Assembly (NCBI GenBank): GCA_963797175.1
Contig: CAWCOL010000005.1
Location: 653,100 to 717,099, forward strand
Source of the DNA: an uncultured Actinomycetes bacterium
Lineage (GTDB): Bacteria > Actinomycetota > Thermoleophilia > Gaiellales > JAICJC01
Direction of reading: 5' to 3'
Length of the DNA stretch: 64,000 nt
Position 1 is the stretch's first letter. The number at the start of each line of letters is the position of its first letter. The notes under the pieces are model-generated. The model did not search any database. It was given only the letters and a program-made list of their open reading frames with translations, and was not told the origin of the DNA. Below are positions 2,925-21,633 of this stretch, in pieces. A program made the position numbers and the translations under genes.

Positions 2925-3005
2925 CGGCGGCAGGTTGTACCGCACCGCCGGCGGCGGAGTCAAGCGTCCTCCACCGCCGGTTGCGGCCTTTGCGATACTC
3001 CGGCC

Positions 3006-4784
3006 ATGAGCACCTTGACGCAGGCAGAGGGAGTGCGGTGGGACCTGTCGCCGCTGTTCGGGTCGGCCGACGAGGCGCGCGCCGCTCTGGCGGACGGTCT
3101 GGAGCGGTCGCGGGCGTTCGAGCGCGATCACCGGGGCACGATGGCCGAGATCACCCCCGCCGTGCTGGCCGCCGCGCTGGAGGAGCTGGGCGCGATCGAC
3201 AACCTGCTCTCGCGCGTGCACTCCTACGCGTCGCTGCGCCGCGCGGTGGACGTGACCAGCGACGAGAACCGCGACCTGTCGGCCTCGGTCGAGCAGGGCG
3301 TGGTCGAGGCGATGAACCTGCTGCGCTTCTTCGAGCTGGAGTGGCTCGAGCTGGACGACGACCGCGCGGCCGAGCTGGCCGCCGCGCCCGAGGTCGAACG
3401 CGACCGCCACCACCTGGAGGCGCAGCGCCGCTTCAAGCCGCACACGCTGTCCGAGCCGGAGGAGCGCGTCCTGGCCGAGCGCGACCCGGCCGCCTCGGGC
3501 GCCTGGCAGACCCTGTTCGGCCAGACCACCTCCACCATCGAGGTGCCGTTCGACGCCGGCGACGGCCCCGAGCCGCACACCATCGACCGGCTGCTCTCCT
3601 ACGTGCACGATCCCCGCCGCGACGTCCGCCGGCGCGCGCTGGAGACGCTCTACGAGACGCTGGAGCCGCAGACCCCGGTGCTCGCACACTGCTACGACTC
3701 GCTGGTCGGCGACCGGCTGGTGCTCGACCGGCTGCGCGGCTACGACGGGCCGATGGTGCTGACCCACCTGCGCAACGAGCTGGAGCCGGACGTCGTCGAG
3801 GCGATGCTGGCCGCCGTCGAGCGCAACTACGGCATCGCCCAGCGCTGGTTCCGCGCGAAGGCCTCCCTGCTCGGCCTCCCCCAGCTCGAGCTGCACGACC
3901 AGTACGCCCCCGTCGGCGAGGCGCGGTCGGTGGATTACGACGAGGCGTGCGCGATCGTCGGCACCGCGTTCGCCGGGTTCTCCGGGCGGGCGGCGACGGT
4001 CGCCGAGGAGCTGTTCCGCGACCACCGGATCGACGCGGAGCCGCGCGCCGGCAAGCGCGGCGGCGCCTTCTGCTCCCCGGTCTCGGGTGACGCCGACCCG
4101 TACGTGATGATGAACTTCACGGACAACATGGGCGACGTTGTCACGCTGGCACACGAGCTCGGTCACGGCATGCACTTCGCCCTCGCCCACGCGGTGCAGA
4201 CGCCGCACTCGGCGCACACCGGGCTGGCGCTGGCCGAAGTGCCGTCCACGTTCGCCGAGTTCGTCACGTTCGACCACCTGCTGGCGGACGAGGCCGACGC
4301 CGAGACGCGCCGCGTGCTGGTCGCCGAGCGGGCCGAGGGTGCGTTCGCCTCGGTGTTCCGGCAGACGGTGATGGTGCGCTACGAGCAGCGGGCGTACGCA
4401 ATGCGGGCGCAGCCGACGGCGCTGACGCCGGACCGGCTGGCGACGATCTGGGTCGAGGAGAACGCGCGCTACTACGGCGACGCACTGGCGATGACCGAGG
4501 GCTACCGGTTCGGCTGGAGCTACATCCCCCACTTCATCGGGACGCGCTTCTACACCTACGCGTACGTGTTCGCGAAGTTGGTCGCGCTGGTGCTGTACGC
4601 CCGCTACCGCAGCGACGGCGACGCGTTCGTCGGCGACTACCTCGAGCTGCTGGCGGCTGGCGGATCGGCCGACCCGGCGACGCTGCTGCGCCGCTGCGGC
4701 GTCGACATCACCGATCCCGGCGTCTGGGATCGCGCCTTCTCGGAGCTCGACCGGATGGTCGAGGCCGCCGAGGCGGAAGCCTGA
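3006..4784 (+). CDS. M3-family oligoendopeptidase (PepF-like zinc metallopeptidase)
   Basis: In-frame ATG at 3006 inside the 402..4784 ORF (MSTLTQAEGVRWDLSPLF...). It has the HExxH zinc motif TLAHELGHGMHF. About 592 aa, typical of M3B peptidases. Confidence 0.9.
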   Translation: MSTLTQAEGVRWDLSPLFGSADEARAALADGLERSRAFERDHRGTMAEITPAVLAAALEELGAIDNLLSRVHSYASLRRAVDVTSDENRDLSASVEQGVVEAMNLLRFFELEWLELDDDRAAELAAAPEVERDRHHLEAQRRFKPHTLSEPEERVLAERDPAASGAWQTLFGQTTSTIEVPFDAGDGPEPHTIDRLLSYVHDPRRDVRRRALETLYETLEPQTPVLAHCYDSLVGDRLVLDRLRGYDGPMVLTHLRNELEPDVVEAMLAAVERNYGIAQRWFRAKASLLGLPQLELHDQYAPVGEARSVDYDEACAIVGTAFAGFSGRAATVAEELFRDHRIDAEPRAGKRGGAFCSPVSGDADPYVMMNFTDNMGDVVTLAHELGHGMHFALAHAVQTPHSAHTGLALAEVPSTFAEFVTFDHLLADEADAETRRVLVAERAEGAFASVFRQTVMVRYEQRAYAMRAQPTALTPDRLATIWVEENARYYGDALAMTEGYRFGWSYIPHFIGTRFYTYAYVFAKLVALVLYARYRSDGDAFVGDYLELLAAGGSADPATLLRRCGVDITDPGVWDRAFSELDRMVEAAEAEA

Positions 4785-4797
4785 GCCACCCGCTCAG

Positions 4798-5013
4798 GCG
4801 TTGCCACCGGGCGAAACGGGGTCAGAGCGGGGTCGCCCACATGCGACCCCTTCGGCACCCTTCCGGCACGAAGGTCACGGCGGGGCGATCGCAGGGGATG
4901 GCGCACGGGCAGCCGCGATTCGCATACCCGCGCGTTGCCACCAGACGATACGGGGTCAGAGCGGTGTCGTTCCTCCGTGACGAACATGGCGCACGTTCGG
5001 CACGAAGATCACG
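4798..5013. repeat. two 82-bp direct repeat copies (4798-4879 and 4932-5013) in a convergent intergenic region
   Basis: Both copies share gcgttgccacc...acggggtcagagcgg...ttcggcac...ggcacgaag(g/a)tcacg. Copy 1 contains the hairpin ggggtcgc/gcgacccc (4829-4850) followed by tt, which may also terminate the peptidase gene. Confidence 0.6.
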
Positions 5014-5096
5014 CCCCGGATCGTTGTCCCAGGACGAGACAACGTCTGACGCCGATCATCTCCCCGTTGCAGATCTGGCGCAGTTCCGGCACAGGG

Positions 5097-6017
5097 CTAC
5101 AGCGCGGCGTACTCGGCGTAGGCCGTCTCCACGGCCGGCAGCAGCCCGGTCACGTACGCGCCCCCCGCGCAGCCGCGGCACCAGTTCGACCGGTTGATCG
5201 CCGTCGCGGTCACGGCCGGGTCGGCGCAGGTCCACAGCCGGTAGAGGATCCACCCGTAGCCCTGCGTGTCGTAGCCCCAGCGCAGGGTCTGCTCGGTCGC
5301 CGCCATCCCGTCGTCCCGGGACGCGTAGCTCTTGACCCCGACGGCGTTGTAGTCGGCCGCGCCGGCCGCGGGCTGGGTCGTCGCCAGTGGGTTCCAGCGC
5401 GCCGTCGTGCTCTCGGCGGTCTGCCAGGCGACCAGCGAGACGAGGTTGTTGCTGCAGACGGGCGCCCCGATCTGTTGGAGGAAGCCGGCCGCCCAGTCGC
5501 CGCGGCTGATCCCGACGCCTCCGGCCGGCGGGGGCGCCTGCGCCAGCGCGTCCAGCACGGCCTGCGTCCGCCGCCGCTCCGCCCGCAGGCTGTCGCGACG
5601 CCGCTCCAGCCGGGCGACCGCGGGGAGCGATCCGCCCGCGCTGGCATCCCGCTGCGCCAGCCGCAGCGACCGGGCGGCGGCCTCGTAGGCGTCGCGCAGA
5701 TGGGCGATGTGGGCGCGCCGCAGCGTGTCGGCCGCCGGGCCCGGCGCCGCGGTGTGCGCCGATGCCCACCCCAGAGCCATGGCCGCCCTCGCCGTGCGCT
5801 CCTCGCGCCTGGTGAGGGTATCCGCCGTCGCCAGCAGTCGGGCGCGCGCGCCGCGCAGGTCTGCCGCCACAGACCCGAGGTCGGCCTCCACCGCACTCAG
5901 GTGCGCGCCCTCGTCCGCCGCCGTTGTCTGAGTGGACGCCGCAGCCGGCATGGCCGCGACGCCGATCGCTATCAGCACCAGCACGAGCGCGACCACCGGC
6001 CGCGCCGCTGCCGTCAC
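5097..6017 (-). CDS. secreted protein with coiled-coil N-terminal half and conserved C-terminal domain of unknown function
   Basis: The GTG at 6017 overlaps the upstream stop (GTGA). Signal-like VTAAARPVVALVLVLIAIGVAAMPAAAS, then an Ala/Arg-rich helical region, then WAAGFLQQIGAPVCSNNLVSLVAWQTAESTTARWNPLATT...YGWILYRLW. This is the last gene of the pst-linked operon. Confidence 0.7.
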   Translation of the reverse strand: MTAAARPVVALVLVLIAIGVAAMPAAASTQTTAADEGAHLSAVEADLGSVAADLRGARARLLATADTLTRREERTARAAMALGWASAHTAAPGPAADTLRRAHIAHLRDAYEAAARSLRLAQRDASAGGSLPAVARLERRRDSLRAERRRTQAVLDALAQAPPPAGGVGISRGDWAAGFLQQIGAPVCSNNLVSLVAWQTAESTTARWNPLATTQPAAGAADYNAVGVKSYASRDDGMAATEQTLRWGYDTQGYGWILYRLWTCADPAVTATAINRSNWCRGCAGGAYVTGLLPAVETAYAEYAAL

Positions 6018-6445
6018 TGCCCGGACGACGCCCCCGGCGTGGCCTGGAGCTTGCCGCGCAGCCCCGGATGCACGCCCGAGTGGTAGGTGATGCTCGCCAT
6101 CGACTGCGGGACGTAGACGTAGGTGCCGCCGGGCGGGATCACCTTCGACTGCACGGGCAGGTGGTCGAACACGACGGACTGGGCAGCGCCGCTGTCGTTC
6201 GTCCAGGTCACGGGCTGCCCGATCAGCGAGACCAGCCAGGCCGGCTGGAACCCGCTGCGCGTGATCGTCACCGTCTGGCCGAAGTCGAAGTTCGCGTCGA
6301 GCCTGCCCGACGACGCGGCGGGCGCGGCGGGCGACGAGGGCCGCGGCGCGGCGGAGGACGCCGGCCCGGAGGAGCCACCGCCGCAGCCGCTCGCGGCCAG
6401 CGCGAGCGTCACGACGAGCGGTGCGAGGATCAGCGGCCGCCGCAT
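6014..6445 (-). CDS. lipoprotein with cupredoxin-like beta domain
   Basis: 143-aa ORF. Lipobox LALAASGC after MRRPLILAPLVVT. The C-terminus ...TYVYVPQSMASITYHSGVHPGLRGKLQ resembles the plastocyanin-like Y-H-C-x-x-H-x-x-M end, but with Ser and Leu in place of Cys and Met. Confidence 0.7.
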   Translation of the reverse strand: MRRPLILAPLVVTLALAASGCGGGSSGPASSAAPRPSSPAAPAASSGRLDANFDFGQTVTITRSGFQPAWLVSLIGQPVTWTNDSGAAQSVVFDHLPVQSKVIPPGGTYVYVPQSMASITYHSGVHPGLRGKLQATPGASSGQ

Positions 6446-7657
6446 CTACAGCGTCCCCGGCAGCAGCAGGTCGAGGCTGCGGAACAGTAGCCACAGGGCC
6501 ATCAGGATGACCGGCGTCGTGATCACGTAGGCGGCCGTCCGCGGCCACCGCCGGTAGAGACGCGTCGCGGCGAACAGCGTGCCCGCAAGGACGGCGCCCC
6601 AGATCACGGCCAGCGGCAGGCCGAGGATGTCGCCGGTCGTGCCCAGCTCGTCGCGGCCGGCGGTCGCCTGCGGCCGCTTCGGGATGGCGACCGGGTCTCC
6701 GTCCAGCTGCGCCGTCACGGCCAGCCGCGCCGACGACCCCACCGATGAGGACGTGACGAGGGTCAGCCGGCTGTCGGCGGAAGCGCCGACCACGTCGCGC
6801 TGGCCGCCCGACACGGTCTGCACGTCGGTGACCAGGTAGAGGAAGCGCCCCTGGCCGGTGACGGCGATGATCTGATCGCCCGGCACCAGCGAGTGGAGGC
6901 CGCCGAACGGGCCGCCGTAGAGGTGGTTGTGGCCGAGCACGACGGCGTTGCCGAACTCGCCCGGCAGCGGCGTCCCCGGAAGATGCCCCGGGCCGTGGCG
7001 CAGGTCGGACGGCGAGCTGCCCTCGCTGACGATCTGGCGCGTCCCCAGCGCCGGAATCTCGAGCAGCGCAACCGGGCCGGACGGCACGGCGGCGGAGGGG
7101 TCGTCGAACGTGCCGGTGCGCAGCCGCTGGTCGAACTGCGCCAGCTGGGCGCGCTGGCTGCGGCTCTCGGAGAGGCCGGTGAAGAGGAATTCGTAGGCGA
7201 TGAACAGGGCCAGGACGATGCCAATGGCGAGCATGGTCGCGCCCAGCCACCGGGCGACGCGGGCCGCGTCCCACCGAGTCGAGGGCGCGGCGACGGCCAC
7301 CGGAGGCTCGGCGGCGGCCGGCTCGGCCACGGGAGCGGCGACGGTATCGGGCTCCGGGACCCGGACGCGCTCGCGCTGGGACAGCTCGGCGATGATTGCG
7401 CGGATCCGGGCGGCGGCCTCGGCCAGCTGTTCGCGCTGCGCCGGGTCGGCCACCGAACGCGACGTCTCCCGCGCCAGCCGCTCCAGCGAGAACGCCAGGC
7501 TGGTCATCAGCAGATCGTCCTCGGTCGGGGTGGACGCGGTCTCGGCCAGCCGGCCTTCGAGGACGTCCACGCCGGCGACGATCTGGCGGAACGCCTCGTC
7601 GGGATCGGACAGGTCGAACTGCTCGGGGATCAGGGGACCGATGCTCATGGGCGCCAC
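6446..7657 (-). CDS. sortase-like transpeptidase homolog (class E-like fold) lacking any cysteine
   Basis: 403-aa ORF. The core LLEIPALGTRQIVSEGSSPSDLRHGPGHLPGTPLPGEFGNAVVLGHNHLYGGPF...GDQIIAVT...RLTLVTSSSVGSSARLAVTAQL matches the sortase His/TLxTC/Arg layout, with Ser at the Cys position. It has one TM helix before the domain and two after it. Confidence 0.7.
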   Translation of the reverse strand: MAPMSIGPLIPEQFDLSDPDEAFRQIVAGVDVLEGRLAETASTPTEDDLLMTSLAFSLERLARETSRSVADPAQREQLAEAAARIRAIIAELSQRERVRVPEPDTVAAPVAEPAAAEPPVAVAAPSTRWDAARVARWLGATMLAIGIVLALFIAYEFLFTGLSESRSQRAQLAQFDQRLRTGTFDDPSAAVPSGPVALLEIPALGTRQIVSEGSSPSDLRHGPGHLPGTPLPGEFGNAVVLGHNHLYGGPFGGLHSLVPGDQIIAVTGQGRFLYLVTDVQTVSGGQRDVVGASADSRLTLVTSSSVGSSARLAVTAQLDGDPVAIPKRPQATAGRDELGTTGDILGLPLAVIWGAVLAGTLFAATRLYRRWPRTAAYVITTPVILMALWLLFRSLDLLLPGTL

Positions 7658-9576
7658 CGGGGAAGGAGGGTCAGGGCTGCGGCGGCCTTGCCGGTGCCGC
7701 CCGCGAGCAGGGCGAGGCCGCCGAGGATGCCAAGGACGGCGAGCCCGGCGATACCGGGGAGCAGCAGGCGCGAGGAGGCGGATGCGAGCGTCGCGGCGGG
7801 CAGATCGACCGGCGCCGTCTCGCAGGGCTGGAGTGCGACGGTCGGCGCAGCGACGTGGGCGCCGCCCTTCCCGGTCGCCCTGGGCGCACCGTGGGGCGCC
7901 TGCTCCGTGCCGTCCTCACACGTCGGCGTCGGGCCGCTGACTCCGCCGGGTCCCCCACCGGGCGGCGGCGGCGTGCCGAGCCCGCTGGGCGTCGTGGTCG
8001 GCGTCGTCGGGGGCGACGTGATGCCCGGCGTCGTCCCCGGGTAGTTCCCGCCGCCCGGATAGGTGCCGCCGCCGCCCGGGGGCGGAGCCGTCGTCTGCGG
8101 GATCGTGGCAGCGGCGGCCGTCAGCGCCGTCTTCATCGCATCGGTCAGCGGCGCGTAGCCCGCGGGCAGCGCCGTCTGTCCGGCGCCGGCGACGTAGGTG
8201 AAGAAGGAGCGCATGGTGATGCCACGGCCGCTGTAGACCTTGTTGGTCGGCACCGTCGCGTAGTCCACGATCGGCATCGGGTAGTCGTTCGGGTCGGTGT
8301 CGGCGAAGTTCGGGCTGACCGTGACGCCGTCCGGGTTGGTGGTTGCGTGCGAGAGCGCGGCGTCGATCGTCGTCGGCGTGGCGTCGACGAACTGGCCCGC
8401 CGCGTTCTCGATCTTGGCGACGGGCAGGCCGAAGTAGGCGGCCTGGCTGGCGTCGATGAAGCCCATGTAGCCGACGCTGAAGTAGTCGGTGTTGAGGTTC
8501 TGGGTCTTGGGGTCGGCGATGGCGTCGGCCAGCTTGTCGCCGCCGACGATGCCCGAGTCCTGCACCAGGTACTTGAGCGGGTAGTCCGCCGAGGCCCCGG
8601 GCCAGTCGGACGGCAGCGCCGATCCGCCGTCAGCCGTCAGCCACGAGGTGAAGAGCAGGTTCGCCGCCGAGTGGTCGCCGCGAACCAGCGGGCGCACCGC
8701 GGGCGGGAAGACGTGGCCCGGGTTCAGCGCGTTGATCTCGGAATCGACGTGCCAGTTCGTCAGCTGGCCGGTGAAGATGCGCGTGACCAGCTCGGGCGTC
8801 AGCTTGAGGTCGGTGACCTGCGCCCCCGGCTCGGAGTGCGCGGCGTCCTGGTCGAACACCTTGTAGGCGAGCACCAGGCCGGACGTCGTCAGCGGCGCGT
8901 ACGTGAAGGTGCGGCCGGCGTGCTTGAGCTGGGCGACCTGGTCGGAGCTGAACGGCAGGCTGGTCACCGCGAAGTCGTTGAGGCCACTGACGAAGTTCGC
9001 CATGCCGTCCAGTGAGTTGGCAGGGATGTAGTTGACGCCGAGCAGGGACGGCGCCTTGCAGGTGTTCAGCTCCCACTGGTAGATGGCGAGGTTCGACTCG
9101 TCGGCGCCGCCGCCCGAGATGGCCGCACCCGAGGGCCTCGGGCAGCCGTCCGGGGTCGGCGCGAACGCCAGGCTCGTGAAGACGCCGCTGGCAAGCGAGG
9201 CGTCGGTGAACAGGCCGAACGAGCAGGGGTGGTTGATGTCGCAGCGGAAGGTGCCAGGGCCCGAGGCCTTGACGTCGCCGACGGTGACGTGCTCGTAAAG
9301 CAGCCCCGAGCCGGTGCCGTCGGTGAAGCCGACGTCGGTGTAGATCGAGGTACAGTCACGCAGCACGCTGGTCGGGTGCAGCGTGCACTGCCGGAAGAAC
9401 ACGACTTGGAGCGGCGTCACGCCCGACCAGGAGACCTTCACGAACTGGCCGTTGCCGAGGCCCGTCGCAGGGGCGACCGTGACCGTGGCGCCGGCGGCAC
9501 CTGCCGGCGCGGCCGGGGAGCCCACGGCCAGCAGGGCGGCGCCGAGGGCCGCGAGAACGAGGATCCGCAGCCTCAC
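7645..9576 (-). CDS. surface-anchored PstS-like binding-fold protein with neocarzinostatin-like N-terminal domain
   Basis: The GTG at 9576 overlaps the upstream stop (GTGA). Signal peptide VRLRILVLAALGAALLAVGSPAAPAGA. A Cys-containing beta domain (ATVTVAPATGLGNGQFVKVSWSG...CSFGLFTD) is followed by a PstS/PBP-like region, a Pro/Gly/Thr linker, a C-terminal hydrophobic helix and a basic tail (..LLPRWRP). Confidence 0.8.
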   Translation of the reverse strand: MRLRILVLAALGAALLAVGSPAAPAGAAGATVTVAPATGLGNGQFVKVSWSGVTPLQVVFFRQCTLHPTSVLRDCTSIYTDVGFTDGTGSGLLYEHVTVGDVKASGPGTFRCDINHPCSFGLFTDASLASGVFTSLAFAPTPDGCPRPSGAAISGGGADESNLAIYQWELNTCKAPSLLGVNYIPANSLDGMANFVSGLNDFAVTSLPFSSDQVAQLKHAGRTFTYAPLTTSGLVLAYKVFDQDAAHSEPGAQVTDLKLTPELVTRIFTGQLTNWHVDSEINALNPGHVFPPAVRPLVRGDHSAANLLFTSWLTADGGSALPSDWPGASADYPLKYLVQDSGIVGGDKLADAIADPKTQNLNTDYFSVGYMGFIDASQAAYFGLPVAKIENAAGQFVDATPTTIDAALSHATTNPDGVTVSPNFADTDPNDYPMPIVDYATVPTNKVYSGRGITMRSFFTYVAGAGQTALPAGYAPLTDAMKTALTAAAATIPQTTAPPPGGGGTYPGGGNYPGTTPGITSPPTTPTTTPSGLGTPPPPGGGPGGVSGPTPTCEDGTEQAPHGAPRATGKGGAHVAAPTVALQPCETAPVDLPAATLASASSRLLLPGIAGLAVLGILGGLALLAGGTGKAAAALTLLPRWRP

Positions 9577-11108
9577 CGGCCGGTCCTCCGCGGCACGCGG
9601 ATGCGGGCCGGGCGGCGGACGCGGCCGACGACCAGCGGCGCCGCCACCAGCGCCACCAGCAGCAGCGCCGCAAGCAGTTGCGGGCTCGCCGACGTCGGGC
9701 TGAGGGATGCCATCTCGTGCAGCGCGGCGTCGAACGAGGCCTGGCGCGCGGTGGCGGACATCGGCGTCACGGTCACGCCGAGCGCGGCCGGGTCGGTCAG
9801 CGAGCCCGGGTTCGCCGCCGCCACGTGCTTGCCGCCCTGCGTCTTCGTGTGCGTCGTCCCCGTCGTGTTCGTTGTTCCGGTCGCCGTCGTGCCGCCCCCG
9901 CCCTGCGGGTTGGTGGTCGGGCCCTGCTGCGGCGAGCCGCCGGTGCCCTGGCCGGTGATGGTCGGGTTCGGGCAGGCCTGCGGCGTCAGCGGTGGCGGGT
10001 TGGGCGCGCCCGGGATCCGGCGCACGGCGTCGAACACGTCGCGCACCAGGTTGGGCGAGAGCGGCGAGTAGCCGAGCGGCGCCGCCTCCTGCTGGCCTGC
10101 GCAGGCGATGTAGATGATCCACTTGCCCAGCACCGCGCCCTTGGCCGGGTCGAGGCCGCTGGTGGGCGTGATCAGGTAGCTGTAGCTGGCCAGCGGATAG
10201 GCGTTCGCCTCGGGCGCGGCGTAGACGCCGCCCAGGTTCTGCGTCAGGTCGGGGTTCAGCGTGGCGTGGGTGAGCGCGACCGCGACGTTGGTGGACGTCG
10301 GCGCCGCATAGTGGCCGCTGGCGTTGCGGATGAACGCCGGCGTCAGCGAGTGCTCGTACACGTAGCCCGCCTCGACGTAGCCGATGCTGCCCAGCCCGAC
10401 GGACGGGTTGGAGATGTAGTTGGCCATGCCGTCGGAGCCGCGCACGGCGACCGAGTGCGGGATGTTGGGCCAGAACTGCACCGGCAGGGTGACGTGGTAC
10501 TGGCGGGCGAACGGGCCCCACGTGGAGGGCGCCAGATGGGCCAGGTAGTCGGCCAGCTTGGCCGAGGTGCCCGAGCCGTCGGAGCGGATGACGGGCGTGA
10601 ACCGCGTCCCGGCGGGGATCACCAGGTGCGGGTTGTCCGCCTTGATCGCGGGATCGTTCCAGCTCGTGACCTTGCCGGTGAAGATCTTCGCGAGCGTCGC
10701 GGCCGACAGCTGGAGGTTCGTCACCTGGTGGCCGCTGGCGTCCTTGAGGTTGTACATGATTGCCGTGCCGCCGGCGACGTCCGGCAGGTACTGGTAGGAG
10801 CGGTGCACCGAGTGCAGCTGCCGCACCTCGTCGGGCAGGAACGGGATCTCGGACGCGGCGAAGTCCACCTGGCCGATCACGTAGAACTGCCGGCCGGCGG
10901 TCGAACCGACGCCCTGGTAGTTGATGTTCAGCCCCTGCCGGGCGGCGTCGGCACGCCACTGGTCGAGCGCGATCTGCACCCACGTCGAGCCCGCGCCGGT
11001 GACGGTCGGCCCGGAAGCCTTCGCGGCCGCCGCCGGCAGCATCACCAGCACGACGGCGGTCGCGGCCGCGAACAGCACGCGGCACATGCGGCCCTTCCGT
11101 CGCGCCAT
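9573..11108 (-). CDS. PstS-family phosphate-binding protein paralog with Thr/Gly-rich linker and C-terminal membrane anchor
   Basis: ATG at 11108 shares one base with the pstB stop. Starts MARRKGRMCRVLFAAATAVVLVMLPAAAAKASG, then GAGSTWVQIALDQW...GVGSTAGR...SDGSGTS, which is typical of PstS. The C-terminus ends ...SASPQLLAALLLVALVAAPLVVGRVRRPARIRVPRRTGR. Confidence 0.85.
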   Translation of the reverse strand: MARRKGRMCRVLFAAATAVVLVMLPAAAAKASGPTVTGAGSTWVQIALDQWRADAARQGLNINYQGVGSTAGRQFYVIGQVDFAASEIPFLPDEVRQLHSVHRSYQYLPDVAGGTAIMYNLKDASGHQVTNLQLSAATLAKIFTGKVTSWNDPAIKADNPHLVIPAGTRFTPVIRSDGSGTSAKLADYLAHLAPSTWGPFARQYHVTLPVQFWPNIPHSVAVRGSDGMANYISNPSVGLGSIGYVEAGYVYEHSLTPAFIRNASGHYAAPTSTNVAVALTHATLNPDLTQNLGGVYAAPEANAYPLASYSYLITPTSGLDPAKGAVLGKWIIYIACAGQQEAAPLGYSPLSPNLVRDVFDAVRRIPGAPNPPPLTPQACPNPTITGQGTGGSPQQGPTTNPQGGGGTTATGTTNTTGTTHTKTQGGKHVAAANPGSLTDPAALGVTVTPMSATARQASFDAALHEMASLSPTSASPQLLAALLLVALVAAPLVVGRVRRPARIRVPRRTGR

Positions 11109-11932
11109 CAGCCGAACCGTCCGTGGACGTAGTCGGCGGTGCGCGGATCGTTGGGCCGCTCGAAGATCTGGGTGGTCTCGCCCGCCTCGACGATCCTGCC
11201 CGGCTCGTTCTCGGCTGCCAGGAAGAAGGCGCAGGACGACGAGACGCGCTGGGCCTGCTGCATGTTGTGCGTGACGATCACGATCGTCACCTCCGAGGCG
11301 AGGTCGAGCACGGTCTCCTCGATCCGCCGCGTCGAGGTCGGGTCGAGCGCGGAGCAGGGCTCGTCCATCAGCAGCACCTCGGGTCTCACGGCCAGCGCGC
11401 GGGCGATGCAGAGCCGCTGCTGCTGGCCACCGGAGAGCGCGCCGCCGGCGTTGCCCAGGCGGTTCTTGACTTCGTCCCAGAGACCGGCCTTGACCAGGCA
11501 CTCCTCGACCAGGTCGTCGGCCCGGCGCACGCGCTTGCCGGACAGGTTGAGTCCGGAGACGACGTTCTGGTAGATGCTCATCGCCGGGAACGGGTTCGGC
11601 TTCTGGAACACCATGCCGATCCGCTTGCGCACCTCGATCGGACGGCGCATGGGGTCGTAGATGTCGTCGCCGTCGAGGTAGACGGCGCCGGACAGCGCCG
11701 ACCCCGGCACCAGCTCGTGCATGCGGTTCAGGATCCGCAGGAAGGTGGACTTGCCGCAGCCGGAGGGGCCGATCAGCGCCGTCACCCGGTTGGCACGCAT
11801 CGGCACCGACACCCGCTCGAGCACCTTGTGCGACCCGAACCAGGCGCTGACGTCGCGGGCCATCAGGCCGCCGGCCACGGCGCCGTTCGGCGACACATGC
11901 GGCATCTCGAGGGTCTGTGCGGATGTGCTCAT
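11108..11932 (-). CDS. pstB: phosphate ABC transporter ATP-binding protein
   Basis: ATG at 11932 overlaps the pstA stop (ATGA). Walker A GPSGCGKST, signature LSGGQQQRLCIARAL, Walker B LLMDEPCSALD, and the C-terminal ...TADYVHGRFG typical of PstB. Confidence 0.95.
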   Translation of the reverse strand: MSTSAQTLEMPHVSPNGAVAGGLMARDVSAWFGSHKVLERVSVPMRANRVTALIGPSGCGKSTFLRILNRMHELVPGSALSGAVYLDGDDIYDPMRRPIEVRKRIGMVFQKPNPFPAMSIYQNVVSGLNLSGKRVRRADDLVEECLVKAGLWDEVKNRLGNAGGALSGGQQQRLCIARALAVRPEVLLMDEPCSALDPTSTRRIEETVLDLASEVTIVIVTHNMQQAQRVSSSCAFFLAAENEPGRIVEAGETTQIFERPNDPRTADYVHGRFG

Positions 11933-13011
11933 CGGGCTCTCCTCGCGAAGTGCCCGATCAGGCGGGCCATGGTGAACAGGGTCAGCACCATCACCATCAG
12001 CACCAGGCAGCCCGTCCAGGCGCGCGCCTGGACGTTGGCCGAGGAGCTCTCGGTGATCTGCTTGTAGATGAAGAGCGGCATCGCCGACTGGGCGCCGCTG
12101 AACGGGTTGGCGTTCATCAGCGACGAGCCGAACGCGGTGGCGATCAGGGGCGCGGTCTCGCCGATGGCCCGGGCGATGCCGAGGATGACGGAGGTGATCA
12201 GGCCGCTGCGGGCGGTCGGGAGCACCACGCTCCAGGTCGTCTTCCACTCGGTCGCGCCCAGCGCCAGCGATGCCTCGCGCAGCCCGTCGGGCACCAGCCG
12301 CAGCACCTCCTCGGAGGTGCGGGTGATGATCGGCAGCATCGAGATCGAGATCGCCAGCGACGCCGCGAAGCCCGACCAGCCGAACTCGCTGACCCAGACC
12401 GCGTAGACGAACAGGCCGGCGAGGATGGTGGGAACGCCGCTCATCGCGTCGACGAAGATCCGCACGGGGCGGCGCAGCGGCCCGCCGATCTCGTTCAGGA
12501 AGATGGCGCAGGCGAAGCCCAGCGGCAGCGACATGGCCACGGCCAGGGCCACCTGCTCAAGCGTCCCCACGATCGCCTGGGCGGCCCCGCCCGACGTGGC
12601 CGCCGAGAGCGGTCCGGTGAACTGCTGCGTCTCGGTGAAGAAGTGGAACGTGAGGGCGTGCACGCCCTTGCTGAAGACGTAGCCCAGGATCAGCACCAGC
12701 GGCACGACCATGGCCAGCGCCGCCGACGCGACGATCACGGTCATCGTCCGGTCGCCGGCCAGCACCGGGCCGTCCAACTCGCGGACGACGATCCAGTAGC
12801 AGCCGATGAAGGCGAGGTACCAGCAGACGGCGAACTCGGCGGGCGCCGAGAACGGCGCGACCTGGAAGATCAGCCAGATCAGCGCGAACGAGGACGCGGC
12901 GGCCCCGGCCAGCACGCCCGCGTCGCGCGTGTTGAAAGCGGCCGGGCGGACCGGCCGGTCATCCACCTGCGCGGGCGTGGCGATGGGCGCGTGCCCGGCG
13001 AGCGTGGCCAT
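11929..13011 (-). CDS. pstA: phosphate ABC transporter permease
   Basis: 360-aa ORF, polytopic. It has the EAS/ALGAT permease loop (LREASLALGATEWKTTWSVVLP) and sits between pstC and pstB. Confidence 0.9.
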   Translation of the reverse strand: MATLAGHAPIATPAQVDDRPVRPAAFNTRDAGVLAGAAASSFALIWLIFQVAPFSAPAEFAVCWYLAFIGCYWIVVRELDGPVLAGDRTMTVIVASAALAMVVPLVLILGYVFSKGVHALTFHFFTETQQFTGPLSAATSGGAAQAIVGTLEQVALAVAMSLPLGFACAIFLNEIGGPLRRPVRIFVDAMSGVPTILAGLFVYAVWVSEFGWSGFAASLAISISMLPIITRTSEEVLRLVPDGLREASLALGATEWKTTWSVVLPTARSGLITSVILGIARAIGETAPLIATAFGSSLMNANPFSGAQSAMPLFIYKQITESSSANVQARAWTGCLVLMVMVLTLFTMARLIGHFARRAR

Positions 13012-13994
13012 CAGATCTCGACTCCGGCGCCGGAGCGCGACCGGCGGACGATCAGGGACGCCGCCACGTTGACCAGCAGGGTGACGACGTAGAGCACGAG
13101 GCCGGCGCCCATCAGGGCGGGCAGGCCGTGCGCGTGGTCGGCGTCGCCGAAGCGGTTTGCGATGTGCGCTCCGATCGTGTTGCCGCCGGTCTCGAGGACG
13201 TGGACGGAGATGTTGAAGGACGCGCTGAGCACGATCGCGATCGAGATCGACTCGCCCATCGCCCGGCCCAGCGCGAGCATCGAGCCGCCGATGATGCCGC
13301 CGCGGCCGAACGGAATGACGACCGTGCGGATCATCCGCCAGCGGCTGCCGCCCAGCGCCAGCGCGGCCTCCTTCTCCCCCGGCGGCGTCTGGGAGAACAC
13401 CTCGCGCATGACGGCAGTGGCGGTGGGGGTCAGCATCAGCGCCACGAGCACGCCCACGATGAACGGCGACGCCGCCAGGTTCCCGCCCTTGGAGGTCGAG
13501 AACAGCGGCACCATGCCCAGGTTGGCGGACAGCCAGCCGGCCACGCCGAGCAGGTGCGGCTGGAGGAAGAAGAAGCCCCAGATGCCGTAGATCAGGCTGG
13601 GCACGGCGGCCAGCAGGTCGAGCACTGTCACCAGCGGGCCGCGCATGCGGGGCGAGACGTACTCGGTCAGACAGAGGGCGGTGAGCAGCGAGACGGGCAC
13701 CGCCAGGACGAGCGCGATCGTGGCGATCACCAGCGTGCCGTAGAGCAGGGCGGCGACGCCGGTCTGGCCGGGGACGGCCGGGTTCCAGCCCGTGCTCGTG
13801 AAGAAGGAGAGGCCGTTCTCACGGAAGGTGGGAAGGGCGCGCAGGAAGAGGAAGAGCCCGATGAGGAACAGCACCACCAGCGTCACCAGCCCCGCGCCGC
13901 TCGCCGTCAGGCGGTACACGCGATCGGTGCGTGTCCGCTGCGAGCGGATCTGGCGCGGCACGTCGGCCGTGACGATGTCTGTTGCTGCACTCAT
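13011..13994 (-). CDS. pstC: phosphate ABC transporter permease
   Basis: 327-aa ORF, polytopic. Motif EKEAALALGGSRWRMIRTVVIP. It lies immediately downstream of pstS. Confidence 0.9.
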   Translation of the reverse strand: MSAATDIVTADVPRQIRSQRTRTDRVYRLTASGAGLVTLVVLFLIGLFLFLRALPTFRENGLSFFTSTGWNPAVPGQTGVAALLYGTLVIATIALVLAVPVSLLTALCLTEYVSPRMRGPLVTVLDLLAAVPSLIYGIWGFFFLQPHLLGVAGWLSANLGMVPLFSTSKGGNLAASPFIVGVLVALMLTPTATAVMREVFSQTPPGEKEAALALGGSRWRMIRTVVIPFGRGGIIGGSMLALGRAMGESISIAIVLSASFNISVHVLETGGNTIGAHIANRFGDADHAHGLPALMGAGLVLYVVTLLVNVAASLIVRRSRSGAGVEI

Positions 13995-14023
13995 CGGGCT
14001 CTTGGCTCTCGATCAGCTACCGG

Positions 14024-15166
14024 TCAGGACTTTGCGAACCGGCAGTAGTTGGTGAAGGTCGAGCCGCCGCCCTGCGGTCCGCTCGGCAGCGGGGCGAACC
14101 CGTACTGGCGGATCGTGTTGGCGATCTCGGTGTGGTAGTCGACGCCCGTGGTCGGGTCGTCGGCGTGGGCCACCTTGCAGATCCAGCCGTTCGCGCCGAT
14201 GTACTGCGTGACCGGCTTGGCCGCCTTCTTGGCGGTGCCGCAGGTGGCGGCGCCGCAGAAGACGTTGTAGAGGAACCGCGAGAACGTGAACGAGCCGTCG
14301 GCGATGTGGGCCTCGGTGGGCGTCACGCCGTCGATCGAGTTGATCACGCTGCCGTCGGGGTTGCCGCCGGCGCCGTACCGCTCCGTCCAGGAGCCGACGG
14401 AGACGGGGACGATCGCGTTCTTGAGATCCGCCGCGGCGATCTCGTTGTTGGCGGTCTGGTCGATCAGCTTGACGCCGGGGCAGCTGGAGCTGCTTCCGCC
14501 GAGGAAGCCGTCGAAGGCCTTGCGGGTGCCGTAGATGCCCAGGATCGTGTAGATCTGGATCGGGCTGTTGGCGCCGCCGACCTGGTTCCAGTTGGTGATC
14601 GTGCAGTTGACGAAGATGCCCTGGAGCTGCGCCGTCGTCAGGTTGTGCACCGCGCTGGTGGCGGAGCCGGCCACGTTCGGGAAGGTCTCCCACGTGATGC
14701 CGTCACGCGCGTAGGCGAGGTAGTTGAGGCCGGTGCAGACGGTCGCATCCGGAGCCGAGGTCTGGCGGACGTAGTTGATCTTCGCCACGCCCGCGGTGTT
14801 CTGCGCGCAGAGCTGCTTGACGCCGGCACCGCCACCGATCGGGAACGCCTCGCTGACGCGATCGTGCGTGTAGTTCTCGGTGGTGATGTCGCCGGTCGCC
14901 GGGATGCAGTGGAAGTCGAGCGGCTGCGTGCCGGTCGAGACCGTGACGTTGCATCCCGGGCTCTCGTTGTACAGCTGGTCGAGCGCACTCGTGACGTGGA
15001 ACGAAACGTCCGAGCCGCTGCCCAGGATCGCCGTCGGCACGACCTTGGTCGCCGCATGCGCGGTCGACACGGCACCGGTCGCCGCGACGGCGAGTGCGAC
15101 CACGGCGAGGCCGGCGACCGCGAGGCGGCGGACGGCCTTGGACCGTGATCTGTTGGTGGTTTCCAT
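14024..15166 (-). CDS. pstS: phosphate ABC transporter substrate-binding protein
   Basis: In-frame ATG at 15166 within the 14024..15301 ORF (METTNRSRSKAVRRLAVAGLAVVALAVAATGAVSTAHA signal, then GSGSDVSFHV...). PBP fold, first gene of the pst operon. Confidence 0.9.
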   Translation of the reverse strand: METTNRSRSKAVRRLAVAGLAVVALAVAATGAVSTAHAATKVVPTAILGSGSDVSFHVTSALDQLYNESPGCNVTVSTGTQPLDFHCIPATGDITTENYTHDRVSEAFPIGGGAGVKQLCAQNTAGVAKINYVRQTSAPDATVCTGLNYLAYARDGITWETFPNVAGSATSAVHNLTTAQLQGIFVNCTITNWNQVGGANSPIQIYTILGIYGTRKAFDGFLGGSSSSCPGVKLIDQTANNEIAAADLKNAIVPVSVGSWTERYGAGGNPDGSVINSIDGVTPTEAHIADGSFTFSRFLYNVFCGAATCGTAKKAAKPVTQYIGANGWICKVAHADDPTTGVDYHTEIANTIRQYGFAPLPSGPQGGGSTFTNYCRFAKS

Positions 15167-15481
15167 GTGGTACGAGCCCCTTTCGGTGTTCTCGGTGATC
15201 TCACGGGGGGCACGCCGTGATGCTGCCTTGTGCCTCAGCATTCCCCCCTTTTCCCATTGAAGCAATGGAGATTGTGTACGAGCACCCCTCCCCCGCGTCA
15301 ACCGACAACCGACGCACCGGCCCCCGAGAGTGTTGCCGCAGCCGAAACCGCACCCTCTGCTCTCACCAAGCGGGGGCGTCGCGGGTGCCAGCGGAGGTCA
15401 TGTGGAGGGACGTATCCGTTAAGCCGCGTTCACGAAGTCCCTGGAAACACCCGACTTTGGGTCTTTACACCAGTTGTTCGG

Positions 15482-15509
15482 TTGACAAACTGGACATTGT
15501 CGATAGGCT
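15482..15509 (+). promoter_or_regulatory. candidate sigma-70-type promoter for the XRE regulator (near-leaderless transcript)
   Basis: TTGACA (15482-15487), a 16-nt spacer, then TAGGCT (15504-15509), with the ATG at 15521. This is a pattern match only. Confidence 0.3.
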
Positions 15510-15520
15510 GGGCTCCGGAC

Positions 15521-15832
15521 ATGGAGCAGCGCAACGGCCGCGAGGGCCATAACCACCGGAGCCCCGCGGGTGCGAATCTGCGCCACCTGATCGGCATGCA
15601 CGACCTGCGCCGCACCGAGCTCGCCGAGCAGATGGGGATCTCCCCCACCGGGCTGACCAACATCCTGAACGGCCGCTCCGAGCCGACGCTGCGCACCGCC
15701 GGCCGCGCCGCCGCCGCGTTCGGCATCTCGATCGACGACCTCTACGGCGAGCTGCCCCGCTGCCTGCGGGCCGCGTCCGTCGCCTTCGAGACGGCCCCGG
15801 TACGGGACATCCGCGCGCGCCGCACCGCGTAG
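15521..15832 (+). CDS. XRE-family helix-turn-helix transcriptional regulator
   Basis: ATG at 15521 in the frame of the 15230..15832 ORF. LRHLIGMHDLRRTELAEQMGISPTGLTNILNGRSEPTLRTAGRAAAAFGISIDDLY is a classic HTH_3/XRE domain. It is divergent from pstS. Confidence 0.8.
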   Translation: MEQRNGREGHNHRSPAGANLRHLIGMHDLRRTELAEQMGISPTGLTNILNGRSEPTLRTAGRAAAAFGISIDDLYGELPRCLRAASVAFETAPVRDIRARRTA

Positions 15833-16122: not shown

Positions 16123-16899
16123 TCAGCCGGGAAGCTCGCGGCGCTCGGCGCCGGCGTGCTCGCGGTTGGCCAGCGTGATCAGCACGTAGCCGATCGCGAT
16201 CAGGAAGATCACCGACTGCTCCGAGTTCATCGCGATCCCGCCCAGGTTCTGATCCTCGGCCGGCGACATGCCCGCCAGCCGCGGGGTGTGCGCGTAGTAG
16301 CTGTAGAACGGATGGGGGACGAACGTGAACGCGAGTCCGAGGAAGGACGCACCCACGAACGCGACCAGCAGGTAGGGCACCAGCACGGCCGGCGAGCGCG
16401 ACCACCACCGCGAGCGCACCACCGGCGCCCAGAACCAGAGGCCGGCGGCGAGCAGCACCAGGTGCTCGACGTTGAGCGCGATCGGGTGCTGGACGGCGTA
16501 CTCGTACACCGGCGCGAAGTGCACGCCGTACCAGGCGGCCAGCCAGAAGGCGAGCGCGGGCACGAGGTTCGTGCAGGCGCGCGGCACCAGCGGGACGGCA
16601 CGGTCGAGCGCCTCCCACATCGCCCCGTTCAGGCCGAGCATGAGCAGCGGCGGCGCGACGTCCGCCAGCAGCGCGTTCTGCACCAGGTGGGCGAGCAGCA
16701 GGTAGTGCACCGCCAGCGTCTCCAGCGGCGAGTTGACCGAGCCCGCGATCAGCACGATGCCGGCCGTGAACGAGGCGATCCGCAGCGGCCCGGGATGGTG
16801 GACGCGCGCCGCCCGGACGTAGGCGACCGCCGCCCCGGCGGCCAGCACCACGAACAGCGGCTCGAAGGTGAAGGACGCCGGATCCGGGGCGGAGCTCAC
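16123..16899 (-). CDS. cytochrome c oxidase assembly factor CtaG-like membrane protein
   Basis: GTG at 16899 in the frame of the 16123..19209 ORF. Polytopic. Motif HYLLLAHLVQNALLADVAPPLLMLGL, as in the Caa3_CtaG family. Confidence 0.75.
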   Translation of the reverse strand: MSSAPDPASFTFEPLFVVLAAGAAVAYVRAARVHHPGPLRIASFTAGIVLIAGSVNSPLETLAVHYLLLAHLVQNALLADVAPPLLMLGLNGAMWEALDRAVPLVPRACTNLVPALAFWLAAWYGVHFAPVYEYAVQHPIALNVEHLVLLAAGLWFWAPVVRSRWWSRSPAVLVPYLLVAFVGASFLGLAFTFVPHPFYSYYAHTPRLAGMSPAEDQNLGGIAMNSEQSVIFLIAIGYVLITLANREHAGAERRELPG

Positions 16900-16968
16900 G
16901 AGGCAGACCGGCCGGCGGCGGTACGCTCGGTCTGTGCACCTCCCGAACGCAACGGCGGCTCCCGGCTG

Positions 16969-17748
16969 ATGGTCGATCCCTGGCGCCTGTCGCCGGACTG
17001 GGAGTGGGCGCTCGCGATCGCCGTGTTCGCGCTCGACTACGTCCTGGTCGTCCGCCACCTCGACCGCACCGGCCGGACGGTGCCTGCGATCCGCCGCTGG
17101 GCGTTCGCCGCGGGGCTGGCGCTGCTCGCACTGGCGCTGCTCTCGCCGATCGAGCATCTCGCCCTCACCTCGATGCTCAGCTTCCACCTGCTCCAGAACG
17201 TGATCATCGCAGACTGGGCGCCGCCCCTGCTCCTGCTCGGGCTGAGCGCGCCGATGGTCGCCACCCTGCGCGGCCGGCGGCTCGTGCGCCGCTTGACGCG
17301 GCCCGAGGTCGCGCTGCCGCTGTGGCTGGTCACGTGGTATGCCGTCCACCTGCCGGTCGTGTACGACTACGCCCTGCGCCACCGGGCCGCACTGGGCGTC
17401 GAGCACCTGCTCTTCATCGTCACCGGGCTGCTGTTCTGGTGGCCGGACATCGTGCCCGGCGCGCTGTCCGCCCGGGGACGGGTGCTGTACCTGTTCATCG
17501 CGATGGTGGCGATGATGCCGCTCGACTTCGGCATCGCCCTGGTCGGGCACCCGCTGTACGACTTCTACCGCGAGACCCCCAAGCTCTGGGGTTGGAGCAC
17601 GATGACCGACCAGCGTGCGGCCGGCGCGATCGCGCTGATCGCCGAGACGACGGTGCTGACCGCGGCGATGCTGATCGCGGCGGCGGCGCTGGTGCGCGAG
17701 GACCGGCGGGCGGCGGCTGCCGCGGCCGGTCAGTCGTCGAGCGGCTGA
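16969..17748 (+). CDS. cytochrome c oxidase assembly factor CtaG-like membrane protein (paralog, divergent)
   Basis: ATG at 16969 in the frame of the 16156..17748 ORF. Motif LSFHLLQNVIIADWAPPLLLLGLSAP. Polytopic and about the same length (259 aa) as its divergent neighbour. Confidence 0.75.
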   Translation: MVDPWRLSPDWEWALAIAVFALDYVLVVRHLDRTGRTVPAIRRWAFAAGLALLALALLSPIEHLALTSMLSFHLLQNVIIADWAPPLLLLGLSAPMVATLRGRRLVRRLTRPEVALPLWLVTWYAVHLPVVYDYALRHRAALGVEHLLFIVTGLLFWWPDIVPGALSARGRVLYLFIAMVAMMPLDFGIALVGHPLYDFYRETPKLWGWSTMTDQRAAGAIALIAETTVLTAAMLIAAAALVREDRRAAAAAAGQSSSG

Positions 17749-19268: not shown

Positions 19269-19421
19269 AAAGGCTCGGAGCGTGCGAAGACTACACAGAC
19301 GGCCCGCGGACGTCACCCCCTGGTGTCGCGCTTCACAACTCTTTCACAGGGGCGAAACCGACGCGCCACCCGGGCGAGTGGTACGGTCTACAGTCGACTA
19401 TCAACAACACGGGGGTGGATC

Positions 19422-21462: not shown

Positions 21463-21522
21463 GTCTTCCTCCTTGGGCCGGCGGAGCGCCGCCGGCGACG
21501 ATCATCAGATACGTGTCGGGAA

Positions 21523-21595: not shown

Positions 21596-21633
21596 ATACG
21601 GGGCTGAGTATAGCCTCGCCGGTTCTGCGCCGA

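Follow-up and report, generated by a model that had tools for sequence, protein, structure and literature searches.

A Pst phosphate-import operon with C-terminally tethered binding proteins and a cysteine-less sortase homologue in uncultured Actinomycetota and Dormiibacterota

The ATP-binding cassette (ABC) importer PstSCAB has been described in E. coli and in M. tuberculosis (PstS1-3), and in mycobacteria several PstS paralogs are found in one locus. Sortases are defined as cysteine transpeptidases, and in the Isd system of Staphylococcus aureus a haem ABC importer and wall-anchored receptors are accompanied by a dedicated sortase B. Cell-wall hydrolases of the RipA, PcsB, CwlO and EnvC type, which have a long coiled coil at the N-terminus and a wall-active domain at the C-terminus, are controlled by the ABC-type complex FtsEX. 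In the znu cluster of Corynebacterium diphtheriae, ZnuABC is extended by ZnuE/F/G; the added proteins are reported to modulate import, and one of them to reach the wall without a known sortase (PMC12445094). Parts of these kinds (Pst, sortase fold, cupredoxin and a predicted coiled-coil wall hydrolase) are combined in nine minus-strand genes at 5097–15166 of a 64,000-nucleotide (nt) stretch, hereafter the window, of an uncultured Actinomycetes bacterium (contig CAWCOL010000005.1, positions 653,100 to 717,099). Uncultured soil bacteria from two phyla share the combination, which is undescribed in the literature searched: full-text searches returned nothing on cysteine-less sortases, sortase-PstS linkage or C-terminally tethered PstS, and Cys-less Pst-linked proteins are not mentioned in a survey of actinomycete sortases from 2026 (PMC13251363). 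Like Isd and znu, the locus is a nutrient importer operon extended by surface-exposed ligand-binding proteins and a sorting component; unlike in those systems, the added proteins are paralogous to the binding protein of the transporter itself, their transmembrane (TM) anchors have no LPXTG and the sortase homologue has no nucleophilic Cys. The reading we favour, with a probability of roughly 0.55, is a conserved Pst import operon with tethered binding proteins that would be organised by a non-catalytic pseudo-sortase.

The transporter core is readily recognised. pstC (13011–13994, minus strand, as for all nine genes) and pstA (11929–13011) score above the cut-offs of their TIGR models (TIGR02138, 255.2 bits, cut-off 196.45; TIGR00974, 251.8 bits, cut-off 193.45), while pstB (11108–11932) is 6 bits below (TIGR00972, 337.0 bits, cut-off 343.2), although none of the other models among the 191 ABC families comes close to this one, so that all three encode genuine phosphate ABC components, as the sequence-only reading had it. 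The canonical PstS is the product of gene 5 (P5; 9573–11108), which has a signal peptide and a binding domain (aa 35–363; 10020–11006). It scores 185.7 bits with TIGR00975, short of the 205-bit cut-off, and its alignment with solved PstS structures is full-length (8ODS, 127 bits). For comparison of the binding pockets, gene 5 and gene 6 and their orthologues were aligned with E. coli PstS (the sequence used is identical to that of 1IXH), whose phosphate ligands we take to be T10, F11, S38, D56, R135, S139, G140 and T141. At these eight positions gene 5 reads T/W/S/E/R/S/G/T, a pattern shared by four of five orthologues from related loci (numbered L001 onwards, see below), the exception being L003 with Ala at 139. 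The replacements in the window are F11W, at a backbone contact, and D56E, and gene 5 keeps seven of the eight phosphate ligands.

The other two PstS-family proteins are more divergent. Gene 1 (‘pstS1’; 14024–15166), the weakest of the three as a PstS, encodes a protein with a signal peptide, ten Cys residues, a non-canonical pocket and no C-terminal anchor; it scores 47.8 bits with PF12849 and 64 bits with TIGR02136 (cut-off 207), its best PDB match is 1TWY (29 bits), and by comparison with 4Q8R and 1TWY the motifs SRD and REDGSGT are changed to RQT and ILGIYGT, with loss of the Arg and Ser of the binding loop. This altered pattern is common to the actinobacterial orthologues L001–L004. An upstream in-frame ATG (15241) was considered as the gene 1 start and ruled out, as orthologues align from ATG 15166. 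Gene 6 (P6; 7645–9576) encodes a signal peptide, a neocarzinostatin/macromomycin-type immunoglobulin domain (9193–9483; PF00960, 25 bits; 2MCM, E 9e-6), a PstS-fold domain (8098–9135; PF12849, 46.7 bits), a linker, a TM helix and a basic tail. The eight ligand positions read D/E/S/S/R/S/A/A, with Ser38, Arg135 and Ser139 kept in all five P6 orthologues and the Asp-Glu pair in three, and the pocket is predicted to be a different, acidic one that no longer matches the phosphate pocket. Genes 1 and 6 are therefore described here as PstS-fold paralogs for which phosphate binding is only putative, their pockets being conserved but non-matching as judged from the alignments. The locus had initially been read as standard pstSCAB plus two anchored PstS paralogs: the two extra PstS-family proteins with C-terminal membrane anchors are present, but the lead gene reaches only 64 of the 207 bits of the cut-off and has lost the Arg and Ser of the binding loop, and it is gene 5 that encodes the canonical PstS.

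All nine minus-strand open reading frames (ORFs) in 5097–15166, read from the sequence, are in frame and joined by overlaps or tiny gaps, and every coordinate given in the sequence-only reading proved correct. pstS1 and pstC are separated by a 29-nt gap; the remaining seven of the eight junctions have an overlap or no gap, namely 1-nt overlaps in TGATG between pstC and pstA (base 13011) and between pstB and P5 (base 11108), ATGA between pstA and pstB (11929–11932), GTGA between P5 and P6 (9573–9576) and between P8 and P9 (6014–6017), and TAG abutting ATG between P7 and P8 (6446/6445). The P6/P7 junction depends on the gene 7 start. A 13-nt overlap (7645–7657), as first described, results if GTG 7657 is used, but ATG 7648 is the more probable start, giving a 4-nt ATGA overlap, because the 400-aa product from this codon is present in a public protein collection and orthologues start at -4 there. 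A simple consensus scan (with low power in such GC-rich DNA; G+C is 65–77% over the first 22 kb of the window and 70–75% for the genome) found no sigma-70-like promoter inside the cluster, and terminator-like sites in the same weak scan are at chance level (2 found, 2.3 expected). The junctions, together with the gene order conserved in relatives, support the proposal of one co-transcribed-looking unit of nine genes, and a single operon encoding a genuine Pst importer, for which gene 5 supplies the PstS, is, from sequence comparison, very probable.

For examination of this arrangement in relatives, a profile built from 12 gene 7 homologues was scanned against one genome per GTDB species, giving 26 loci, and the nine window proteins served as tblastn queries for the neighbouring genes. 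L001–L008, which are metagenome-assembled genomes (MAGs) of uncultured Actinomycetes/Actinomycetota, one of them labelled Gaiellales, preserve the order pstS1-pstC-pstA-pstB-P5-P6-P7-P8(-P9). L001–L005 and L008 extend back to pstS1, which is the first gene in each, while L006 and L007 are short contigs beginning at pstB and pstA, respectively; P9 was not detected by tblastn in L001. In L009 and L010, both from Candidatus Dormiibacterota MAGs, pstC-pstA-pstB-P5-P6-P7-P8 is preserved, with the gene 1 homologue relocated downstream or to the other strand. Frameshifts in several of the MAGs fragment the tblastn matches; in the cleaner assemblies (L003, L006, L007, L009) almost all junctions have a start codon at -4 or -1 relative to the stop of the gene before. 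Conservation in relatives of the five genes that follow pstB, a check named in the sequence-only reading, is thus seen in eight actinobacterial loci and largely in two from Dormiibacterota, and because order and overlaps are kept in two phyla the nine genes behave as one unit over a long evolutionary distance. It is likely, on this evidence from gene order, that the five downstream genes work together with the Pst importer. One metagenomic ORF (P0020) fuses the C-terminal part of a P6 homologue to a sortase-like protein; this is probably a frameshift or assembly artefact, which still confirms adjacency of the P6 and P7 genes.

Relative to PstSCAB, with which the locus shares PstC/PstA/PstB orthologues and, in gene 5, the canonical ligand set, the first gene is not a canonical PstS, five envelope genes and no phoU follow pstB, and the binding proteins are type-I membrane proteins on linkers of ~100 aa rather than lipoproteins or free periplasmic proteins. 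In P5 a low-complexity Gly/Thr/Pro-rich linker (9744–10019; ~100 aa) leads into a conserved juxtamembrane helix, ARQASFDAALHEMA (9708–9749), a TM helix (aa 471–499; 9612–9698) and a basic tail. The low-complexity Pro/Gly/Thr linker of P6 (7792–8097) is followed by a TM helix (aa 600–629; 7690–7779), also with a basic tail, at the start of which lies the motif RLLLPGIAG (7744–7770); the P6 anchor segment SSRLLLPGIAGL is a candidate ligand peptide for the gene 7 groove. Two types of tail recur across loci: a P5 type, with a helix Q(R/K)xAxFxxAxxExA ahead of the TM helix and no LP motif, and a P6 type, in which the TM helix opens with [LV]LP[GAST] plus a hydrophobic residue ([LV]LPx in 12 of 13 contexts). 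Neither LPXTG nor LAXTG occurs in P5, P6 or the tails of their relatives, the LP motif of P6 sits within the TM start and is not followed by a Thr-Gly scissile pair, and the 64-kb window contains no LPXTG-type protein and no other sortase. The P5 and P6 tails match nothing in Pfam or NCBIfam at E up to 10, and hence no known sorting-signal model (PEP-CTERM, PGF-CTERM, LPXTG etc.). As the canonical PstS (gene 5) itself bears an unusual C-terminal anchor, phosphate binding is tied to tethering.

Gene 7 (P7; 6446–7648) encodes a membrane protein with a cytoplasmic helical N-domain (nothing recognised by Pfam/NCBIfam at E up to 10), TM1, an extracellular sortase domain (6698–7084), TM2, TM3 and an extracellular C-terminus ending in LPGTL (6449–6463). 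It matches PF04203 with 71.8 bits (cut-off 26.6) and 26 sortases in the PDB; class E is the best-scoring sortase class (NF033747, 89.4 bits, cut-off 160). In pairwise alignments with 4D70, 5GO5 and 5GO6, LGHN of gene 7 falls on the catalytic-His motif (His243, 6929–6931; residue numbers are counted from GTG 7657) and SSARL on the catalytic Arg (Arg311, 6725–6727), while LTLVTSSS aligns with (M/L)T(I/L)(V/T)TC, placing Ser303 (6749–6751, codon TCC) on the catalytic Cys. The Cys is missing from all 21 homologues in a wide alignment and from all 12 of the closest homologues. A sequencing error at Ser303 (TCC for TGC) was considered and is ruled out by Ser in all orthologues and at 141 of 199 aligned family positions. 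The sequence-only prediction of a sortase-like protein therefore holds for the domain and not for a canonical Cys transpeptidase, Ser303 standing in place of the TLxTC Cys. With the LAXTG-specific class E housekeeping sortases (Streptomyces SrtE1, 5CUW; 5GO5/5GO6) gene 7 shares the fold, the GPGH and GN motifs and the His and Arg positions, and differs from them in the replacement of Cys by Ser (Ala, Thr or Gly in relatives), a score below the class cut-off, the LPxT[LM] tail, the lack of LAXTG substrates here and a constant family link to PstS-like genes.

An exhaustive profile search of 1.84 billion representatives returned 1036 proteins at E < 1e-30, the best 150 of which run through to the C-terminal end of the profile and, with the first homologue hits, make up a family census of ~195 members. 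At least ~180 representatives (50% identity level) among the 200 best matches examined have no Cys. At the His, Cys and Arg positions RSR is the most frequent combination (75 of ~195), followed by HSR (48), RAR (16), HCR (13) and HAR (10): the Arg is almost universal, the nucleophile position holds Ser, Ala, Thr or Gly in all but 13 members (Ala or Gly in ~36) and the catalytic His is replaced by Arg in more than half of the family. A nucleophile that is often Ala and a His that is mostly Arg argue against conserved catalysis, and since both are freely replaced in the family gene 7 is inferred to have lost transpeptidation. All members have two additional TM helices after the sortase domain, and end in LP[GAS]T[LM], with Pro in 190 of the 191 aligned rows covering this position; the tail is predicted, by the positive-inside rule, to be extracellular, on the same side as the sortase domain. 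Thr at the P1 position of the tail is found in 144 of 176 Cys-less and in none of 13 Cys-containing members (Fisher p = 2e-9, not corrected for phylogeny), and the latter end in LPAN[LIVY] or LPAS. By average-linkage clustering the Cys-containing members may be either ancestral or nested. Among the canonical His-Cys-Arg sortases of Acidimicrobiia MAGs (L011–L014, L016, L018, L019), most, though not L011, combine C-terminal TM helices with a terminal RLLPA[AN]L, LLPASY or ALPSY, so that the C-terminal double TM with an LLPxx tail is common to gene 7 and canonical Cys-sortases of Acidimicrobiia, and an LPxx tail at the very C-terminus is an unremarked feature of a wider actinobacterial sortase group. 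L018 has Ser at the aligned Cys position and a Cys one residue later (TLTSC).

The link to PstS extends beyond the ten orthologous loci. In ten unrelated contexts of Cys-less members (L027/L028 and L029–L036) a PstS-like or pst gene is nearby in every case, and the gene adjoining the sortase-like gene, directly upstream in most, almost always encodes a protein with a low-complexity linker, then a TM helix and basic tail, at its C-terminus. Nocardioides sp. AN3 (L027/L028) carries permeases, a 561-aa PBP_like_2 protein, large anchored proteins, the sortase-like gene, a PstB-like ATPase and SLT_2. In L031 and L035 pstC-like and pstA-like genes and one for a 524-aa periplasmic-binding protein (PBP) precede the sortase-like gene, which has a 4-nt overlap, and genes for an 843-aa LLPT-anchored protein and SLT_2 come further on in L035; in L033 a neocarzinostatin-domain (P6-like) protein precedes the sortase-like gene. 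L030 contains a P5-tail fragment, a neocarzinostatin-PBP (P6-like) protein, the sortase-like gene, a gene-8-like gene, an inverted gene-1-like gene and a two-component system, and L029, L032, L034 and L036 are further contexts with a PstS-like or pst gene nearby. No PstS match was found within 10 kb of the sortase gene in nine loci of canonical His-Cys-Arg sortases (L011–L017, L019, L021), nor on the part-contig of a Cys-containing family member. With a PstS-like or pst gene in all ten Cys-less contexts and no PstS match at the canonical loci, the association is therefore specific to the Cys-less clade. In L030 a response regulator (Trans_reg_C) and a histidine kinase (5985–7759) directly adjoin the reduced cluster; this pair may provide the link to phosphate sensing that the window does not have.

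Gene 8 (P8; 6014–6445) encodes a lipoprotein with the lipobox LAASGC and a cupredoxin-related domain. Its homologues include proteins with PF00127 and PF13473 (E 2.8e-9), and one close homologue is named ‘plastocyanin’ by its source. A homologue follows P7 in L001–L010 and in L030. Sequence homology and strand pattern are those of cupredoxins of the plastocyanin/amicyanin type, from which gene 8 differs in being a lipoprotein and in reading Gln, Ser, His and Leu at the copper-ligand positions His, Cys, His and Met. The cupredoxin-like lipoprotein of the first description is thus confirmed in fold and lipobox but has lost three of the four copper ligands, and, going by these residues, a type-1 copper site is excluded with the cupredoxin fold retained.

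Gene 9 (P9; 5097–6017) had been described as a secreted coiled-coil protein. The signal peptide and coiled coil (5541–5921) are supported by the AlphaFold2 (AF2) model, to which an all-alpha lysozyme-like domain (5100–5522), missed in that description, can be added. Homologues share an invariant C-terminal block, W..AE.T.A.WNPLATT ... WC.GC..G.YV; two have longer coiled coils, and one of these (P0077) carries PF24568 and the source name ‘CwlO-like’. The full-length model (predicted local distance difference test, pLDDT, 84) comprises the signal peptide, three long helices (33–87, 94–128 and 130–159; pLDDT 86–98 over residues 31–140, 73–82 by residue 160) and the all-alpha domain. Searches of the PDB with the sequence gave only noise, and with the full-length model (Foldseek) only coiled coils, the best being the N-domain structures 9HMX and 6EWY of the mycobacterial hydrolase RipA, with probabilities of 0.96 and 0.90 but E of 0.3–0.6. 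The C-domain modelled alone (AF2; pLDDT 91, predicted template-modelling score 0.86) significantly matches three large multi-domain phage proteins in the BFVD viral library (E 2e-7, 3e-6 and 1e-4; one annotated as M23 peptidase), the next entries being FlgJ muramidase, GH73 glucosaminidase-like, lysin and lysozyme proteins. The invariant Glu202 (5412–5414) closes helix 189–202, a position typical of the catalytic acids of lysozyme-type enzymes, and is a candidate catalytic residue. From the models, gene 9 most likely encodes a wall glycosidase with a coiled coil in the style of RipA, PcsB or CwlO; its predicted N-terminal coiled coil and C-terminal wall-active domain are arranged as in those proteins and EnvC, whereas the C-domain is lysozyme/GH73-like rather than NlpC/P60, CHAP or M23, no ftsEX is present in the cluster and the neighbouring ABC system is an importer. 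SLT_2 lytic transglycosylase genes (L027, 9898–10662; L035, 11572–12252) close the analogous pst/sortase-like clusters, in the place of gene 9. A GC-rich hairpin without a U-tract (5005–5057, minus strand), no better than shuffled sequence (z = -0.99), lies ~45 nt past the gene 9 stop, between this gene and a convergent M3 oligoendopeptidase F gene (2901–4784, plus strand).

Together these features suggest a mechanism in which PstCAB would work with binding proteins held on long tethers instead of lipid anchors. Gene 7 would be a pseudo-sortase that is no transpeptidase but retains the peptide groove, which would hold either its own LPxT[LM] tail, as a pseudo-substrate, or the [LV]LPx juxtamembrane segment of a P6-type protein, and its occupancy would position or gate the tethered binding proteins beside PstCA. 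A linker of ~100 residues, ~30 nm by our estimate when fully extended, could allow the binding domains to enter or cross the wall and then come back to PstCA. Gene 9 might make local openings for them in the peptidoglycan, and its coiled coil may control this, as happens in RipA, PcsB and CwlO. The contrast between Thr and Asn in the tails fits a pseudo-substrate that active enzymes must not cleave, and is suggestive only. For its separate parts, a non-catalytic scaffold role of gene 7, drawn from the alignments, seems to us slightly short of an even chance, and a wall-opening role of gene 9, drawn from the models, is put forward tentatively.

Several observations weigh against this mechanism. 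The Thr/Asn contrast may be one phylogenetic event counted many times, and the tail may be an inherited feature of the membrane domain, as it recurs, in the form RLLPA[AN]L or LLPASY, in canonical His-Cys-Arg sortases of Acidimicrobiia. Neither gene 8 nor gene 9 is recognised by any Pfam or NCBIfam model at E up to 10, and the closest PDB match of the gene 9 C-domain, the FlgJ glycosidase domain 5DN5, is weak (template-modelling score 0.54, E 0.42). Finally, His243, Ser303 and Arg311 are all invariant in the clade of the window (the 12 closest homologues), and a functional Ser-His-Arg site would look alike.

This last point leads to the main rival explanation, that gene 7 is an active ‘serine sortase’ using Ser303, His243 and Arg311, which would cleave P6, and perhaps P5, near [LV]LPx for release or covalent attachment to the wall. 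Ser is the commonest residue at the nucleophile position and Arg311 is nearly universal, the LP motif, TM helix and basic tail of P6-type proteins have the general architecture of a sorting signal, and the P6-type and sortase-like genes form a tightly linked pair, often with a 4-nt overlap. However, Arg replaces the catalytic His in most of the family, and both tail and Pst linkage persist in the ~36 members with Ala or Gly at the nucleophile position. P6 has neither LPXTG nor LAXTG, its LP motif being located within the TM start, and P5-type proteins have no LP motif. Replacement of the Cys in sortase A abolishes activity, and we know of no reported sortase with a Ser nucleophile, nor was one found in the literature searched. 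We consider an active serine enzyme rather unlikely.

Alternatively, genes 6–9 might form an envelope module of their own, which would remodel the wall or capture another ligand and travel with ABC importers without a part in phosphate uptake, P6 and gene 1 binding something other than phosphate and the pseudo-sortase and hydrolase serving that function. The P6 pocket, with Asp-Glu for the Thr-Phe of PstS (conserved in three of five orthologues) and without Asp56, Gly140 and Thr141, would suit such a module, as would the absence of the binding-loop Arg from gene 1, the pair of P6-like and sortase-like genes in L033 with no pstCAB nearby, and an XRE regulator, not PhoPR, flanking the operon. 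Against this, every one of the ten independent contexts has a PstS-like or pst gene, two phyla keep the overlapping codons that join these genes with pstB and gene 5, and the canonical PstS encoded by gene 5 shares the theme of an unusual C-terminal anchor, making a module unconnected with phosphate doubtful.

Taken literally, the sequence-only reading implies a canonical sortase that covalently anchors two PstS paralogs to the wall as a phosphate-scavenging layer, as SrtB does in Isd, and although a sortase domain is present, both paralogs have a TM helix with a basic tail and an importer with additional binding proteins and a dedicated sortase homologue recalls Isd, this is very improbable given that the catalytic Cys is absent from gene 7 and all its Pst-linked relatives, that P5 and P6 have no LPXTG or LAXTG and that the window encodes no second sortase or LPXTG-type protein. 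More generally, covalent wall anchoring by the usual sortase mechanism is unlikely, because the Cys is replaced by Ser303 and the anchored proteins have no LPXTG or LAXTG.

Returning to the favoured pseudo-sortase, if it is correct an enzyme fold has been re-used as a binding or scaffolding device, with the Cys dropped but the fold, the Arg, the LPxT-like tail and the link to PstS kept, and long C-terminal tethers with a dedicated partner would be a third way for monoderms to retain ABC binding proteins, beside lipid anchors and fusion to the permease. A bolder generalisation, which we regard as speculative and less likely than not, is that the Cys-less, LPxT-tailed sortase homologues are an unrecognised class dedicated to PstS-type proteins, either pseudo-enzymes that dock or gate C-terminal tethers via the groove and built-in tail or the first serine-nucleophile sortases, and with the lysozyme-like partner would constitute a new tethering and sorting system by which monoderm soil bacteria (Actinomycetota, Dormiibacterota) capture nutrients across the wall. 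The carriers belong to abundant uncultured soil lineages (Gaiellales-like Actinomycetota, Dormiibacterota), to which phosphate acquisition is ecologically central, and Nocardioides sp. AN3 may be a culturable carrier in which the idea would be directly testable.

Upstream of pstS1, a promoter-like element (TTGACG, 15301–15296; 17 nt; TACACA, 15278–15273; minus strand) precedes a leader of ~105 nt (within 15167–15301, minus strand) containing a purine tract, GAAAAGGGGGG (15253–15243), a C tract (15211–15204) and the ribosome-binding site GAAAGGGG (15184–15177). A small hairpin (CCATTGCTTCAATGG) is also present in the leader. The same layout, with the promoter-like consensus TTGAC(G/A)-17/18-TAxAxx, is found upstream of pstS1 in L001–L005 and suggests a possible switch that sequesters the Shine-Dalgarno sequence; the leader has no Rfam match, and RNAalifold on the five leaders gave a weak -1.05 kcal/mol.

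The conserved neighbour of the operon is a gene for an XRE-family helix-turn-helix regulator (15521–15832, plus strand; PF01381, 42.8 bits), divergent from the operon, rather than a PhoPR pair. It is 57–77% identical in L001–L005 and L008, lying divergently upstream in all of these except L002, where it is downstream of P9, and its product is a candidate local regulator by virtue of this position. A palindrome, TTGTCAA-N9-TTGACAA, is present between the XRE gene and the operon in relatives, its right half-site being degenerate in the window (~15472–15494; TTGTCAACCGAACAACTGGTGTA), and a second conserved block, GTGAACGCGGCTTAAC, lies ~60 nt beyond it. Just upstream of the XRE gene are two head-to-head Caa3_CtaG cytochrome-oxidase assembly paralogs (16123–17022, minus strand, and 16990–17748, plus strand), followed by a gene for a 528-aa NlpC/P60 protein (17730–19316, minus strand). 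Elsewhere in the window, a ‘tRNA-???’ with a two-base anticodon called by ARAGORN (44052–44134, plus strand), where the Rfam tRNA model has no match, is probably a false positive, and the only supported tRNA is tRNA-Ala(GGC) at 21522–21596 on the minus strand.

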